A DNA stretch of 64,000 bases from positions 1-64,000 of the forward strand of contig JBBIQV010000004.1 of assembly GCA_037442105.1 (NCBI GenBank), given 5' to 3'. The position numbers were made by a program. How positions within the stretch are numbered: position 1 is the first letter of the stretch; each line of letters begins with the position of its first letter. This DNA is from Nitrospiraceae bacterium. GTDB lineage: Bacteria; Nitrospirota; Nitrospiria; Nitrospirales; Nitrospiraceae. Positions 1-6,000 of this stretch are shown here, piece after piece.

Positions 1-3000
1 CCAAGGAAGAGGGGGGGCGGCACACGCCGTTCTTCAACGGGTACCGGCCGCAGTTTTATTTCCGGACCACGGACGTGACGGGCATCGTGCAGTTGAATCC
101 GGGGGTGGAGATGGTGATGCCGGGGGACAATGTGAGTGTGGCGGCGGAGTTGATCAGCCCGATCGCGATGGATCAAGGGTTGCGGTTTGCGGTGCGCGAG
201 GGCGGCAAGACCGTCGGCTCGGGGGTGGTCACGGAAATCTTGGCCTGAAGTTGAGAGCTGTCAGCTGACAGCTAAGGAGAGTTGAGATGCGCGAAATCAT
301 CGACATGGCCTGCACGGTCTGTAAAGAACGGAATTATTCGACCATGAAGAACAAGAAGAACGACCCTGACCGACTGGAGCGCAACAAGTTTTGCCGCGTC
401 TGCCGGAAACACACGCCGCATAAGGAGGTGAAATAGGCGAGAGGTTATAGGCTATGGGCTATCGGTAAGAGGATTGATAGCGGTCACCTCCGCTACCTAG
501 TTGTCTATCGCCCTTTGCCTATTGCCTGCGCGAAGCGGAGGGGCATGGTGTTCAACGGCTAGCACGTCGGTCTCCAAAACCGAAGGTCTGGGTTCGATTC
601 CTAGTGCCCCTGCCACCCCAAGCTTGCTCGTACTGGGCGTCCTATGATGGCTCTTGGCGCCTGGATGGACACCTTGGGGGTTGGTTTTTGATGTAGAAGC
701 TTGCTCGACCCGGAGCCTCTCCAATTGCTCTTGGCGACGAGATAAATAACTTGATGGAATGATTCAGAAATTAGGAGGCAAGGATGTTTTCGAAGCTGAC
801 CGCGTCGATCCGCGAATTCTTTAGCGACGTCAGGGGCGAGGTGAAGAAGATCTCGTTCCCGACACAGGCTGAAACGGTTGGCTCAACGACGGTTGTCGTC
901 GTGTTCTGCATCATCATGTCGTTGTATCTCTCGGTGGTGGATTCGTTCCTGGCGTGGCTGGTGCGCAAGATCATTTGATGGCAGCGTCGCCTGATGACGT
1001 ACGGAACACGGAGATGAGTTTGGGGGCGGCCGGATGTGGGTGGAGTGTCCGGTGTTGGTCTGAGGGGTGGCGATGAATAAGAACTGGTATGTCATTCATA
1101 CCTATGCCGGGTTTGAAGGGCGTGTGAAAACCAGTCTCCTGGAACGAGCTAACCAGATGGGATTGGTCGAGAAGCTTGGCCAGGTGCTAGTGCCGACGGA
1201 AGATGTGGTCGAGATTAAAGATGGAAAGCGACGGACCTCCCGACGAAAGTTTTTCCCGGGCTATGTCTTGGTCGAACTCGAATCGCCGCTGACGGATGAA
1301 ACTTTGCAGATGATCAAGGAGACTCCAAAGGTCACCGGGTTTGTCGGAGGCGGAGCCCAGCCAACTCCCCTTACGGCGGAGGAAGTGGAGTCACTCCTGA
1401 AGCAGGTGGATGCGAGCACGGCCGGCCCGCGCGAGCAGATTCGGTTTATCAAGGGGGACAACGTTCGGATTATCGACGGGCCTTTCTTAGGTTTTAATGG
1501 AGTGGTTGACGAGGTAGACACCGATCACAGTCGAGTGAAGGTGTTCGTCAGCATCTTCGGCCGGTCAACACCGGTCGAACTGAGTTTCTTGCAAGTGGAA
1601 CGGATTTAGACAGTCAGCCAGTAGCGAATAGCCAGCAGCGAACAGCAATGAGCGGGCAGCACGCTGCAAATAATCTGATAGTTCCATGCTACTAGCTGTT
1701 CACTCCTCGCTGCTCGCTTAGGAGAGTAATTCAATGGCAAAGGAAGTATCTGCGCAGATCAAGTTGCAAGTCCCCGCGGGGAAGGCCAACCCGGCCCCGC
1801 CCATCGGCCCGTCGCTGGGCCAGCACGGCGTGAATATTATGGAGTTCTGTAAACAGTTTAATGCGCGAACTCAGAAGGAAGGCGACAGCATTATCCCTGT
1901 GATCATCACTGTTTATAAGGATCGCACATTCACCTTCATCCTGAAGACTCCGCCCGCTTCCGATCTGCTCAAAAAGGCAGCCGGAATTATCAAGGGCTCC
2001 GGGGTTCCTCATAAGGACAAGGTGGGTAAGGTCACGAAGGCGCAGGTTCGGGAAATCGCCCAGAAGAAGATGACGGACTTGAATGCGGCCGATCTGGAAG
2101 GGGCGATCAAAATTATTGAGGGCACAGCTCGGAGCATGGGGGTTGTCATCCAGTAACGACTGGATGCGAGCAAAGCATAAGTAAGGAGCAGGGACATGGG
2201 AAAGAAGATGAAGGCAGCGACGGAGAAGGTGGAGCCTCGCCTCTATGGCCTGCGGGATGCCGTCGAGGTCGTAAAGAAGGCTGCCTATGCCAAGTTCGAT
2301 GAGTCGGTGGATTTGGCGATTCGGCTGGGAGTGGATCCTAAACGATCGGATCAAATGGTGCGCGGCACTACTGCCTTGCCGCACGGGACGGGGAAGAAGG
2401 TGCGGGTCCTCGTTTTTGCGAAGGGAGAAAAGGAGCAGGAAGCGCGCCAGGCTGGTGCCGACTACGTCGGCGCTGACGATCTGATGGAAAAAATCAAGGG
2501 CGGATGGATGGATTTTGACTGCGCCATTGCCACGCCTGATCTGATGGGGGCCGTCGGAAAGCTCGGCAAGGTCCTCGGACCGCGCGGACTCATGCCGAAT
2601 CCGAAGACCGGCACGGTGACTTTCGAAGTGGGAAAAGCTATTGCGGAGATTCGAAGGGGCCGCGTGGAATTTAAGGTGGAGAAGGCGGGGATTGTTCAGG
2701 TTCCGGTGGGGAAGGTTTCGTTCGAGCCCACGAAACTCTACGATAACGCCCAGGCTGTATTGGAATCGGTAATGAAGGCCAAGCCGGCATCCTGCAAGGG
2801 CCGGTACCTTAGGAGCGTGACCATCTCCAGCACGATGGGGCCCGGCGTGAAACTGGACACGGTGGCCATTGCCAAAGCGTGGAGTTGAGAAGGAAGCTAG
2901 GGAGAGAAAATAGGAGAGGGAGATGAAACGGGAAGAGAAAGCGACAGCGGTTGCTGAGCTGACGGAAAAGTTCGGTCGAGCCAGGATCGCGATTCTGACT

Positions 3001-6000
3001 GAATGCGCGGGCCTTCCGGTCAACCAGGTGACGGAACTCCGCAGGCAGTTGCGCGGGGCCAAGGCAGAATACAAGGTCGTCAAGAACACCTTGGCGGCGA
3101 GGGCCTGCGAGGGTACTAGCATCGCCGGTGCGAAGCCGCACTTTAAGGGGCCGTTGGGCGTCGTGATCGGCTACGACGACCCTGTTCTGCCGACCAAGGT
3201 GTTGAGGGACTTCATTCAGGCTGAGAAACGCGAGGAAAAGATCAAGATTACCGTCGGCGTCCTCGATGGCAAGGTCGTCCAGCCGGCCGAACTGGCCGCT
3301 GTCGCAAAATTGCCGAAGAAGGAAGTCTTGGTGTCGATGCTTCTTTCAGCCATGCAGGGGCCGGTGCGGGGTCTGGTCTATGCGTTGAGCGGTGTGTTGA
3401 GCGGATTAGTGCGAGTGGTGGCAGCTATTCAGGAAAAAAAGAAAGGGGAGGGGGACATGCCAGCAACAGAAGGAAGGCTATCGCAGGACGAGTTGATCAA
3501 AGCAATCGAGAGCATGAGCGTATTGGAGCTGTCCGAATTGGTCAAGGGGCTCGAGAGCCGGTTTGGTGTGACGGCGGCGGCTCCGGTGGCGGTGGCGGCT
3601 GCCCCGGCCGGAGGTGGCGCGGCAGCGGCTCCGGCAGAGGAAAAGACGGCTTTTGACGTAATCCTCGCCAGCGCTCCGGCGGATAAGAAAATTCAGGTCA
3701 TCAAGGTGGTTCGCGAGTTGACCAGTCTTGGCTTGAAGGAAGCCAAAGATCTTGTCGAGGGCGCCCCGAAACCGGTGAAGACCGGCGTGACGAAGGAAGA
3801 AGCGGATACGATGAAGAAGAAGCTCGAGGAAGGCGGAGCAAAGGTCGAGATCAAGTAAGAAGTAAGAGCGTCAATGGTCATTCGTCAACCTTGTGTGGAT
3901 GGTCGGCGACTGGCGGTTGACGAGAGGCGCGCACGGCTGGTGCGCGCGTGACGATTTAGCTTGGAGGAGTGAGGAATGCCCGAAACGACTCTCAGTGAGT
4001 TCGTCGAACGGAAGGACTTCTCTCGAATCCGTACCAGTATCGAGATTCCGGATCTGATCGAGATACAGAAGCGCTCCTACGAAGAGTTTCTCCAAATGGA
4101 GGCGGAACCGGAGCGCCGGAGCGATCAGGGGTTGCAAGCCGCCTTGGCGAGCGTGTTTCCGATCGCCGATTACAACAATACGGCTGTGTTGGAATTCTCC
4201 AGCTACTCCCTGGGGGCCCCGAAGTACGATGAGCGGGAGTGCCAAGAGCAGGGCATGACCTTTGCGGTGCCGTTGAAGCTCCGCGTTCGCCTGGTCGTGT
4301 TCGATAAAGAAGACAAGGGACCCAAGAAGAAAGTCCTCGATGTGCGCGAACAAGAGGTCTACGTCGGAGAGCTTCCCTTGATGACCGAACGGGGGACGTT
4401 CATTATCAACGGAACAGAGCGGGTCGTCGTGAGCCAGCTCCACCGGTCTCCTGGCGCGTCCTTTACCCATGATAAGGGTCGGACGCACGCGAGCGGCAAA
4501 GTCCTCTATTCCGCCCGCATCATCCCCTATCGTGGTTCGTGGCTCGATTTCGAATTCGACGCCCGGGACATCCTCTATGTCCGCATCGATCGCCGGCGCA
4601 AGATGCAGGCAACGATTCTCCTGAAAGCGTTCGGCTATTCGGCCGACGATCTCCTTAAGATGTATTATCCAGTCGAGGAGATTCGCGTGGTCAAGGGTAA
4701 ACTGATGCGGAAGTTGGATCCGGAGATCCACCACGGGCTGCGGTGCGCCACGGAAGTGACGGAGAAGGGGGGCAAGGAGCCGATCGTTCGGGAGGGTGGG
4801 AAGCTGACCAGGACGTTGATCGCTCGCTTGAAGGCAGCCGGTATTAAGGAAGTGCCTGCCGCGCCGGCGGAATTTGTGGGCCGAGCGGTGTTGACCGAGT
4901 TGGTCGATCCTAAGAGCAAGCAGAAAATTGCCGAGAAGAATCAGCGTCTGACGGCGGAGATCATCGAGAAAATTCTGGAGAGCGAGGTCGAGGATTTCAA
5001 GGTCATCTATTTGGATACCGCAACTGCGACACCTGTCATTCTCGACACACTGGAGATGGAACGAACCGGCTCCAAGGAAGAGGCGATGGTGGAAATATAT
5101 CGCCGCTTACGGCCGGGAGAAACTCCGTCGATCGATACGGCGAAGGCGCTGTTCGACAACCTGTTTCTCAACGCCAAGCGCTACGATTTGTCGCCTGTGG
5201 GGAGGCTTAAACTCAACAAGAAGCTTGGACTCGATCTGCCGCTCGATCAGCGGACGCTCACGGCGCAGGATATCGTCGAGGTCATCCGCTATCTTGTGAA
5301 TCTCAAAATGGGGAAGGGAGAGATCGACGACATCGACCATTTGGGCAATCGCCGGGTTCGCTCGGTCGGCGAGCTGTTGGAGAATCAGTTCCGGCTGGGT
5401 TTGGTTCGGATGGAGCGCAGCATCAAAGAGCGCATGAACCTGCTCGATATGGAGACCGTGCTTCCGCACGACTTGATCAACGCAAAGCCGGTGGTGGCGG
5501 CGATCAAGGAGTTCTTCAGCAGCAGCCAGCTCTCGCAGTTCATGGATCAGACGAACCCGCTGGCGGAGATTACGCACAAACGCCGTCTGTCCGCGCTCGG
5601 TCCTGGCGGGCTGACACGGGAACGGGCCGGCTTCGAGGTCCGCGACGTGCACCCCTCGCACTATAGTCGTATCTGTCCGATCGAAACGCCCGAAGGACCG
5701 AACATCGGCTTGATCACGTCGCTGGCGACCTATGCACGCATCAACCAGTTCGGATTTATCGAAGCGCCCTACCGTAAAGTCGTAAAGGGCCGCGTCACGG
5801 ATACCATCGAGTTCTTGTCGGCTATCGAGGGTGACAAATATGTCATCGCGCAGGCCAACTCGAAAGTCGACGGGTCCGGCCGGTTGGTATCGGAAACGAT
5901 CTCGGCCCGATACGGCGGTGATTTTATTACGGCGTCACCCGACAAAGTCGAATATATGGATGTGTCGCCGAAGCAGGTGGTCAGTGTGGCGACCGCGTTG

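Follow-up and report, generated by a model that had tools for sequence, protein, structure and literature searches.

How can a single reading frame supply L10 and L12 at a ratio of about 1:5? The bacterial ribosomal stalk is usually described as one L10 protein to which two to four L12 dimers are bound non-covalently. The question is raised by a fusion of rplJ and rplL found in a Nitrospiraceae genome, within a 64,000-nt stretch of DNA that constitutes the window analysed here.

One reading frame encodes L10 and L12

The fused frame is stop-free across 311 codons, and the canonical stop codon between rplJ and rplL is absent (Table 1). Pfam places Ribosomal_L10 at aa 1–97, L12_N at aa 188–234 and L12 at aa 244–311. 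The uL10 RNA-binding domain was recognised by PF00466 (96 bits) and by NCBIfam NF000955 (164 bits, cut-off 85); the NCBIfam L10 match, above its cut-off, extends over aa 4–173 and covers 167 of the 168 profile positions. The dimerisation domain, hinge and C-terminal domain of bL12 are all present (PF16320, PF00542, TIGR00855), the TIGR00855 match spanning aa 186–311 with 158 bits against a cut-off of 84. These results bear out an earlier note on this DNA, which had described a complete L10 running into a complete L7/L12 in a single 311-codon frame and no separate L7/L12 gene: the one L10 match and the one L12 match in the genome (86.7% complete) both lie inside this frame, and no second free rplL or rplJ was found elsewhere in it. 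The internal Met, which had been placed at residue 181, is residue 179, so that free L12 would comprise 133 aa.

The short gap upstream of rplJ gave no match to the Rfam L10 leader, and neither a sigma-70 promoter nor a terminator was found within positions 2700–4000. Loss of the leader as a consequence of the fusion was rejected, because a short gap is already present in several unfused relatives of the class.

Table 1. Coordinates of the rplJ-rplL locus and its neighbours.
Feature	Position	Strand	Basis or remark
rplK (uL11), upstream neighbour	1734..2156	+	Pfam
rplA (uL1), upstream neighbour	2196..2888	+	Pfam
rplA-rplJ gap, 34 nt, rplJ ribosome-binding site only	2889..2922	+	No room for L10 leader
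rplJ-rplL fused ORF (uL10-bL12), 311 aa	2923..3858	+	Open frame, Pfam and NCBIfam profiles
uL10 part, aa 1–174	2923..3444	+	C-terminal helix aligns to end of T. maritima L10 (three-dimer length)
Internal Shine-Dalgarno and spacer, in-frame reading K-K-G-E-G-D	3440..3456	+	Read as former rplL ribosome-binding site
Internal ATG (Met179), predicted free bL12 start	3457..3459	+	ATG in 131/131 ORFs
bL12 part, 133 aa	3457..3858	+	Pfam, NCBIfam
bL12 layout: short N-terminal extension, dimerisation domain (188–234), Ala/Gly hinge, C-terminal factor-binding domain (244–311)			
rpoB (presumed from its sequence), downstream neighbour	3976..7935	+	

The fusion extends across the Nitrospirales

The fusion is no sequencing error: it was found at every one of the 80 named close loci, in each of the 42 genomes from two other families and in 8 further members of the family. 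An artefact is also ruled out by its recurrence in a sample of the order and in RNA-library contigs. For an even sample of the order Nitrospirales, 149 genomes were picked without regard to the fusion; 146 were matched, and a long frame of 308–454 aa was present in 141 of these. Of the five shorter frames, two are fused and two are truncated by a contig end, in one case beyond the junction and in the other ahead of it; the fifth, G198, lies at a contig end by its coordinates, its DNA being outside the inspected set. No inspected genome of the order has a stop between the L10 and L12 parts, in agreement with the proposal that the fusion is order-wide. In one study, RNA-library contigs cross the N. 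moscoviensis junction unchanged in three of four runs, levels and starts lying beyond what such contigs report. The sister order is unfused (7/7 genomes).

Outside the order, separate L10–L12 fusions occur in Armatimonadota and Dehalococcoidia, and all 20 checked at the DNA level keep a Shine-Dalgarno (SD) sequence and start (−10.6 to −16.0). Scans with the whole fused proteins of other phyla yielded 159 rplJ-rplL loci, of which 144 are separate, one is fused (a Nitrospirota MAG) and 14 are unscored. Among the possible cases previously flagged elsewhere in the phylum, G387 proved to be a real fusion, and G034 was rejected, its long frame being an upstream extension. The long frame of G471 is no fusion either; that of G459 is neither accepted nor rejected as one.

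The junction contains a probable ribosome-binding site and start codon

Codon statistics were obtained from 131 unique fused ORFs, 80 of them chosen by similarity to the fused query. The internal ATG is invariant (131/131). Upstream of it, Lys at codon −5 is written AAA in 127 of 128 cases, against 28% elsewhere in the ORFs, Gly at codon −4 is GGA or GGG in 125 of 125, against 49% elsewhere, and the synonymous codons of the junction are fixed to AAA-GG(A/G)-G. The fixed bases are complementary to the 16S tail, which was found in 5/5 relatives; calculated against the 16S tail of relatives, the SD energy at the internal start of this locus is −13.6 kcal/mol. Median SD energies put the internal ATG (−13.4) ahead of unfused rplL starts (−10.1), the rplJ start (−9.4) and other in-frame ATGs (−5.6), and the internal SD is stronger than synonymous recodings in 123 of the 131 ORFs. 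Furthermore, the local MFE is −2.5 at the internal start, compared with −5.3 at the rplJ start and −12.5 in the rest of the ORF. In part of family f3, the SD occupies a different codon register while the frame and the ATG are unchanged. The same GAAAGGAG motif as in the fused ORFs lies upstream of unfused rplL in six of seven sister-order genomes. The fused ORFs thus display a conserved internal start codon and an SD under nucleotide-level selection, as in-frame internal-start genes do. Judged by its sequence, the junction is the ribosome-binding site that formerly served rplL, and the view that its codons double as an SD and an ATG holds. Because this internal SD and ATG are under nucleotide-level selection, free L12 is very likely produced from the internal start, as the earlier note had supposed.

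Genes with programmed frameshifts, such as dnaX, have a conserved slippery heptamer and a shifted-frame stop. The in-frame A_AAA_AAG heptamer at the A-rich junction of this locus could in principle allow a frameshift that frees L10, but only 8 of the 131 ORFs contain the heptamer, and neither shifted frame has its next stop at a conserved distance. Programmed recoding is accordingly disfavoured and seems barely credible.

Stops are selected against at the junction

Neutral evolution predicts about 39 stop gains across codons −8 to −6 and about 8 more at codons −2/−1, an expectation based on 65 saturated sites; none was seen. Linker indels consist of whole codons only (−1, 0, +2), and the SD–ATG spacer of fused ORFs varies mainly at third codon positions, unlike that of an unfused clade. 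By these substitution patterns, stops at the junction are selected against besides the constraint exerted by the ribosome-binding site.

This pattern could also be an entrenched accident, in which the tether is intact but useless and stops are absent through the constraints of a purine-rich ribosome-binding site and of the L10 end. T is indeed scarce at first codon positions throughout the junction, loss of a stop beside an in-frame ribosome-binding site is an easy mutation (21 other protein clusters are fused), and G387 is a single-genome fusion (1/36 in its order). However, third positions of the junction often carry T (54/128 at codon −8), an in-frame stop triplet lies within 8 codons before rplL in 111 of 211 unfused loci, and the fusions are fixed across whole clades; we consider an accident unlikely. 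The accident account bears on the reason for keeping the tether and does not conflict with a two-start mechanism.

Gly at codon −2 (123/128) and Asp/Glu at codon −1 (117/128) are conserved at the protein level. They could form a cut site if the long product were a precursor, processed by proteolysis within the linker or by trimming of the L12 tail to give an ordinary non-covalent L10(L12)6 stalk, with both starts kept. A structure model predicts the linker (aa 174–187) as a low-confidence coil, and there are precedents for ribosomal proteins released from a fusion by cleavage, as PMC5027506 describes for ubiquitin-S31. Nevertheless, a search for Prp, a protease of ribosomal proteins, found none in any of five genomes (3 of 14 controls positive), the linkers of separate fusions have in common only SD-encoded residues, and there would be little reason to exclude stops from a tail that is cut off anyway. 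Processing seems improbable on this evidence.

No codon signal for higher L12 output was detected between the ORF halves at fourfold sites, which vary by 30.9 steps per site in the L12 half and 32.1 in the L10 half (parsimony, p=0.28). A signal of rplL over rplJ is reported for other bacteria in the relevant passage of PMC13001810. Model-based tree lengths of the two halves, 104 versus 54, were set aside for 31 and 34 saturated sites. The tree was computed with FastTree, leaving out locus L154, which is without rplA.

L10 length, L12 supply and proteome tables

The L10 part aligns to residues 4–179 of T. maritima L10, reaching its C-terminus, and alignments to E. coli and B. subtilis L10 end at aa 156–158. 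T. maritima L10 binds three L12 dimers. Since the fused L10 keeps this three-dimer length, free L12 would be needed. The number of L12 dimers follows the length of the L10 C-terminus, according to a passage of PMC4592705. With a mean pLDDT of 63 and a pTM of 0.44, the structure model is weak, and it does not give the position of the tethered domain; it contains helices at 133–145 and 148–173, both at low confidence. A structure search returned 50 matches, each to one half, with no solved chain covering both.

In public proteome tables, the N. moscoviensis fusion ranks third of 52 ribosomal proteins, with normalised counts at 2.0 times the median for the other 51 (PMC8407350 Table S1), and the N. 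marina fusion shows a 1.5-fold excess (rank 5 of 18; PMC8115632 supplement). This 1.5- to 2.0-fold excess is smaller than the 3.1-fold expected for one tethered plus five free copies and falls inside the range over which single-copy proteins scatter (8- to 27-fold). These are protein-level tables, in which peptides spanning the junction or the internal N-terminus are not resolved. There was no match to the fusion in 12 of the 15 files of the PMC11410670 supplement or in the readable files of the PMC12179292 supplement.

So small an excess could mean that only the fusion is made, giving a one-arm stalk or one to which extra fused chains donate L12 domains, with the SD look-alike a by-product of the K-G-E-G residues; a single L12 dimer is enough for E. 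coli viability, as stated in the portion of PMC4592705 concerned. The three-dimer length kept by L10, the fixation of synonymous codons to an SD, the invariant ATG and the register shift in f3 all speak against such a product, which we regard as very improbable.

A two-start model of the stalk

We propose, as the probable arrangement, one gene with two starts that yields a tethered L10–L12 chain plus free L12. In the ancestor of the Nitrospirales, the rplJ stop and a spacer of about 25–35 nt would have been lost, as we infer from the sister-order arrangement, so that the L10 frame continued into the rplL ribosome-binding site. Initiation at the rplJ ATG can yield only the 311-aa chain, because there is no stop and no conserved frameshift signal. 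Initiation at the retained, stronger internal SD and ATG, suggested by the selection on these sequences, would supply the 133-aa L12 in excess. The fused chain would hold 23S rRNA via L10, and free L12 dimers would occupy its three-site helix. The tethered L12, held by a flexible linker some 13 residues long, may dimerise with a free copy at the distal site (one tethered plus five free) or form a seventh arm. The resulting stalk would be an ordinary L10(L12)6 stalk with one non-exchangeable arm, and the tethered chain may persist on the ribosome as one base with an attached arm. The stalk may then have the fixed asymmetric composition put forward in the earlier note.

More tentatively, and with a likelihood somewhat short of even, a P0-like stalk may have evolved repeatedly in bacteria, with an anchored, non-exchangeable L12 arm and free L12 from one gene, selected order-wide. 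If so, every 50S subunit would be assured of one factor-recruiting arm, or the stalk would be odd-numbered (1+5 or 1+6), and competition of elongating with initiating ribosomes would determine the L10:L12 ratio, with no L10 leader ahead of rplJ. A natural tether, fixed in the main nitrifier order and separate in other phyla, would test the role of L12 exchange and of an even copy number.

Comparison with known systems and previous records

The fused locus shares with the canonical stalk uL10(bL12)4-8 (E. coli; T. maritima L10, PDB 1zav) its domains, the gene order rplK-rplA-rplJ-rplL-rpoB, an L10 helix as long as that of T. maritima and an L12 with its own SD and ATG. It differs in lacking a stop between the genes, so that L10 would be made with one L12 attached, and, unlike the canonical operon, it has no room for an L10 leader. 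Production of Cas11 from cas8/cas10, as outlined in part of PMC11899642, likewise involves one ORF encoding a large subunit and a C-terminal small subunit started at an internal Met; that case is proven by mutation and mass spectrometry, whereas we infer the L10–L12 case, which is ribosomal and would have arisen by two-gene fusion. Archaeal and eukaryotic P0 (uL10) is also a scaffold with dimers on a spine helix and its own factor-binding motif at the end, a motif in which all P-proteins terminate, according to a passage of PMC2926600. The likeness is an analogy only: the tail of the Nitrospirales fusion is a whole bacterial L12 including the dimerisation domain, and the P0 profiles, four longer L10 models (PRK04019), scored only 24–34 bits against cut-offs of 331–547.

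Its description as the first natural covalent L10–L12 was overstated, given the separate fusions in other phyla and existing database names. As had been suspected, the long ORF is already in public annotations: ALA57626.1, SLM48502.1 and BCA56718.1 are direct orthologues, 84–87% identical. The label 'Fused 50S ribosomal proteins L10 and L7/L12' is in use in GenBank and UniProt, the name 'Multifunctional fusion protein' also occurs in UniProt, and PMC8407350 Table S1 has the gene name 'rplJL'. These names capture the long ORF and nothing of the internal start, the order-wide fixation or the recurrence in other phyla. A literature search found no study of an L10–L12 fusion, bioRxiv supplements, which might mention one, being beyond its scope; how the fusion works appears to be unstudied. 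Annotation often gives fused ORFs just one of the two names, L10 or L7/L12, and the other protein then looks missing.

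L10 and L7/L12 share one reading frame throughout the Nitrospirales

The rplJ-rplL frame encodes a complete L10 (aa 4–173, NCBIfam) followed by a complete L7/L12 (aa 186–311), in which both the dimerisation and the C-terminal domains are recognised by Pfam. Thus, the single 311-codon L10-L7/L12 frame proposed in an earlier note was borne out, as was its claim that a separate L7/L12 gene is absent, no further L10 or L12 match being found in the 86.7%-complete assembly. The L12 start, which that note set at residue 181, had to be moved two residues upstream.

Features of the window at and around the fused gene
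Feature	Position	Strand	Remarks
tuf-like gene, 3' end	1–248		ordinary context
rpmG-like ORF	287–436		Cys pairs; ordinary context
tRNA	541–609		ordinary context
rplA-rplJ gap	2889–2922		
rplJ-rplL fused ORF	2923–3858	+	311 codons, open, between rplA and rpoB
Internal ATG	3457	+	residue 179; would give a 133-aa L12
L12 N-terminal extension	3457–3480		about 8 residues

The fusion is real and order-wide. It was present in 80 of 80 named close loci (chosen by similarity to the fusion), in 8 further family members and in all 42 genomes of two other families. In an even sample of the order, searched with the L10 profile alone, 146 of 149 genomes from four families matched, 141 of them with frames of 308–454 aa. 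Among 20 loci fetched from this sample (four of the five shorter frames and 16 others), the junction was free of stops in 19, the remaining contig stopping short of it. Furthermore, RNA-library contigs crossed the junction unchanged in three of four runs of one study.

Elsewhere in the Nitrospirota the genes were separate at 59 of 60 loci, and in the sister order in 7 of 7. A FastTree phylogeny built on L1+L10+L12 of 61 loci grouped the Nitrospirales fusions in a single clade (support 1.0) adjoined by an unfused lineage (0.95). The fusion of G387, a genome from another order of the same class (locus L165, G387:C122), was placed among unfused genomes (0.99); it is the only one among 36 matched genomes of its order, its junction is unlike that of the Nitrospirales, and this single MAG probably represents an independent origin.

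The fusion is already annotated in databases: in GenBank the orthologues from N. moscoviensis, N. japonica and KM1 carry the name 'Fused 50S ribosomal proteins L10 and L7/L12', and UniProt uses 'Multifunctional fusion protein'. Despite these names it is apparently unstudied; no study of an L10-L12 fusion was found in the open literature, a scope holding few subscription papers, and the accessible part of PMC7203096 does not mention it.

The junction preserves the former rplL start

By its sequence, the junction represents the former rplL start. The internal ATG is invariant among 131 unique fused ORFs. Of 128 Lys codons at position -5, 127 are AAA (28% elsewhere), and all 125 Gly codons at position -4 are GGA or GGG (49% elsewhere); because the relatives are not independent, these counts do not amount to p-values. 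The bases forming this Shine-Dalgarno (SD) element are complementary to the 16S tail of five of five relatives, from which the anti-SD was taken because no true 16S 3' end was found in the source assembly. Median SD pairing energy was -13.4 kcal/mol at the internal ATG; the corresponding values were -9.4 for the rplJ start, -10.1 for unfused rplL starts (n=200) and -5.6 for other in-frame ATGs (n=730). The internal SD outscored synonymous recodings in 123 of 131 ORFs. The internal start was also the least folded site (MFE -2.5 vs -5.3 at the rplJ start and -12.5 in the rest of the ORF); weaker folding at the rplL than at the rplJ start is reported for E. coli and B. subtilis (PMC13001810). Some members of family f3 have the SD in another codon register, with frame and ATG retained.

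Since the junction's GAAAGGAG motif also precedes unfused rplL in six of seven sister-order genomes, the fusion most likely arose through loss of the stop and a spacer of about 25–35 nt. The unfused sister order already has the L12 N-terminal extension (window 3457–3480; L143, L438–L443), which in the fusion makes up half of the linker. Across 132 fused loci the rplA-rplJ gap has a median length of 37 nt, compared with 205 nt across 56 unfused Nitrospirota loci; as several unfused class relatives also have short gaps (15–72 nt), the L10 leader was lost or moved before the fusion.

Read-through of the junction is maintained

The distribution of stops and indels indicates that read-through is kept. 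Fourfold-site rates predict some 39 stop gains for codons -8 to -6 and some 8 for codons -2/-1, and none was seen at either, the expectation being rough (65 saturated sites, 80 preselected ORFs). An in-frame stop triplet lies within eight codons before rplL at 111 of 211 unfused loci. Linker indels are whole codons, and the SD-ATG spacer of the fusions varies mainly at third positions (entropy 1.4–1.7 vs 0.07–0.35 bits), a pattern lacking in an unfused clade (n=24). This retention may mean either that the tether is beneficial or that it has become entrenched.

One gene may supply tethered and free L12

The L10 half aligns with T. maritima L10 as far as the latter's C-terminus, whereas alignments with E. 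coli and B. subtilis L10 stop at aa 156–158. T. maritima L10 carries three L12 dimers. With an L10 of such length, the fusion provides one L12 of about six, so free L12 would be needed; dimer number tracks the length of the L10 C-terminal region (PMC4592705). We consider it fairly probable that one gene with two starts yields both tethered L10-L12 and free L12. The main rival, that the tether is cleaved, appears unlikely, and the ribosomal-protein protease Prp was not found in the five genomes searched. No internal promoter was found, and fourfold-site variation did not differ between the L10 and L12 halves (p=0.28). A programmed frameshift was rejected, a slippery signal occurring in only 8 of 131 ORFs and not being conserved.

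Evidence at the protein level is thin. In the proteome of N. moscoviensis, 'rplJL' has 522 spectra, which after mass normalisation puts it at rank 3 of 52 ribosomal proteins and at 2.0-fold the median of the other 51 (PMC8407350 Table S1). In N. marina the ORF ranks 5 of 18, at 1.5-fold the median of the 17 others listed as ribosomal proteins (PMC8115632 supplement). The expected ratio is 1 for the fusion alone and 3.1 with five free copies; because single-copy ribosomal proteins scatter 8- to 27-fold, these counts only lean towards an L12 excess. In a structure model (mean pLDDT 63), a helix to residue 173 is followed by low-confidence coil (174–187) and the L12 helices, the tethered domain being unplaced. 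Among proven mechanisms, the nearest is the production of Cas11 by internal initiation within cas8/cas10 (PMC11899642); in architecture, the nearest is P0, the archaeal/eukaryotic uL10, with its own factor-binding tail (PMC2926600).

Similar fusions occur in other phyla

Among the best 150 matches from 1.84 billion representatives, at least 21 other full-length fusion clusters (proteins within P0123–P0199) share 34–47% identity with the query, single-member clusters being possible errors; named members belong to Dehalococcoidia, Armatimonadota, Bipolaricaulia and Ca. Fervidibacterota. Judged from protein sequence alone, Met precedes L12 in 17 of the 21 and Val or Leu in four. At the DNA level, 4 of 251 genomes in the class of Tepidiforma form one fused group, and the phylum of Ca. 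Thermosaccharophagus has fusions in 15 of 137 matched genomes: of 17 long frames, 3 had already been identified as fusions, 12 were confirmed as such, 1 was separate and 1 was ambiguous. A strong SD and a start codon are kept at 20 of 20 DNA-checked junctions, as scored with the Nitrospira anti-SD. Because junctions differ and unfused relatives lie in between, at least three origins are likely. Proteins P0126, P0140 and P0150 carry 4–7 tandem repeats of the L12 C-terminal domain, one example being a 593-aa Nannocystis pusilla protein named ribosomal protein L7/L12 (WP_346660302.1), and P0140 additionally has a long repeat tail.
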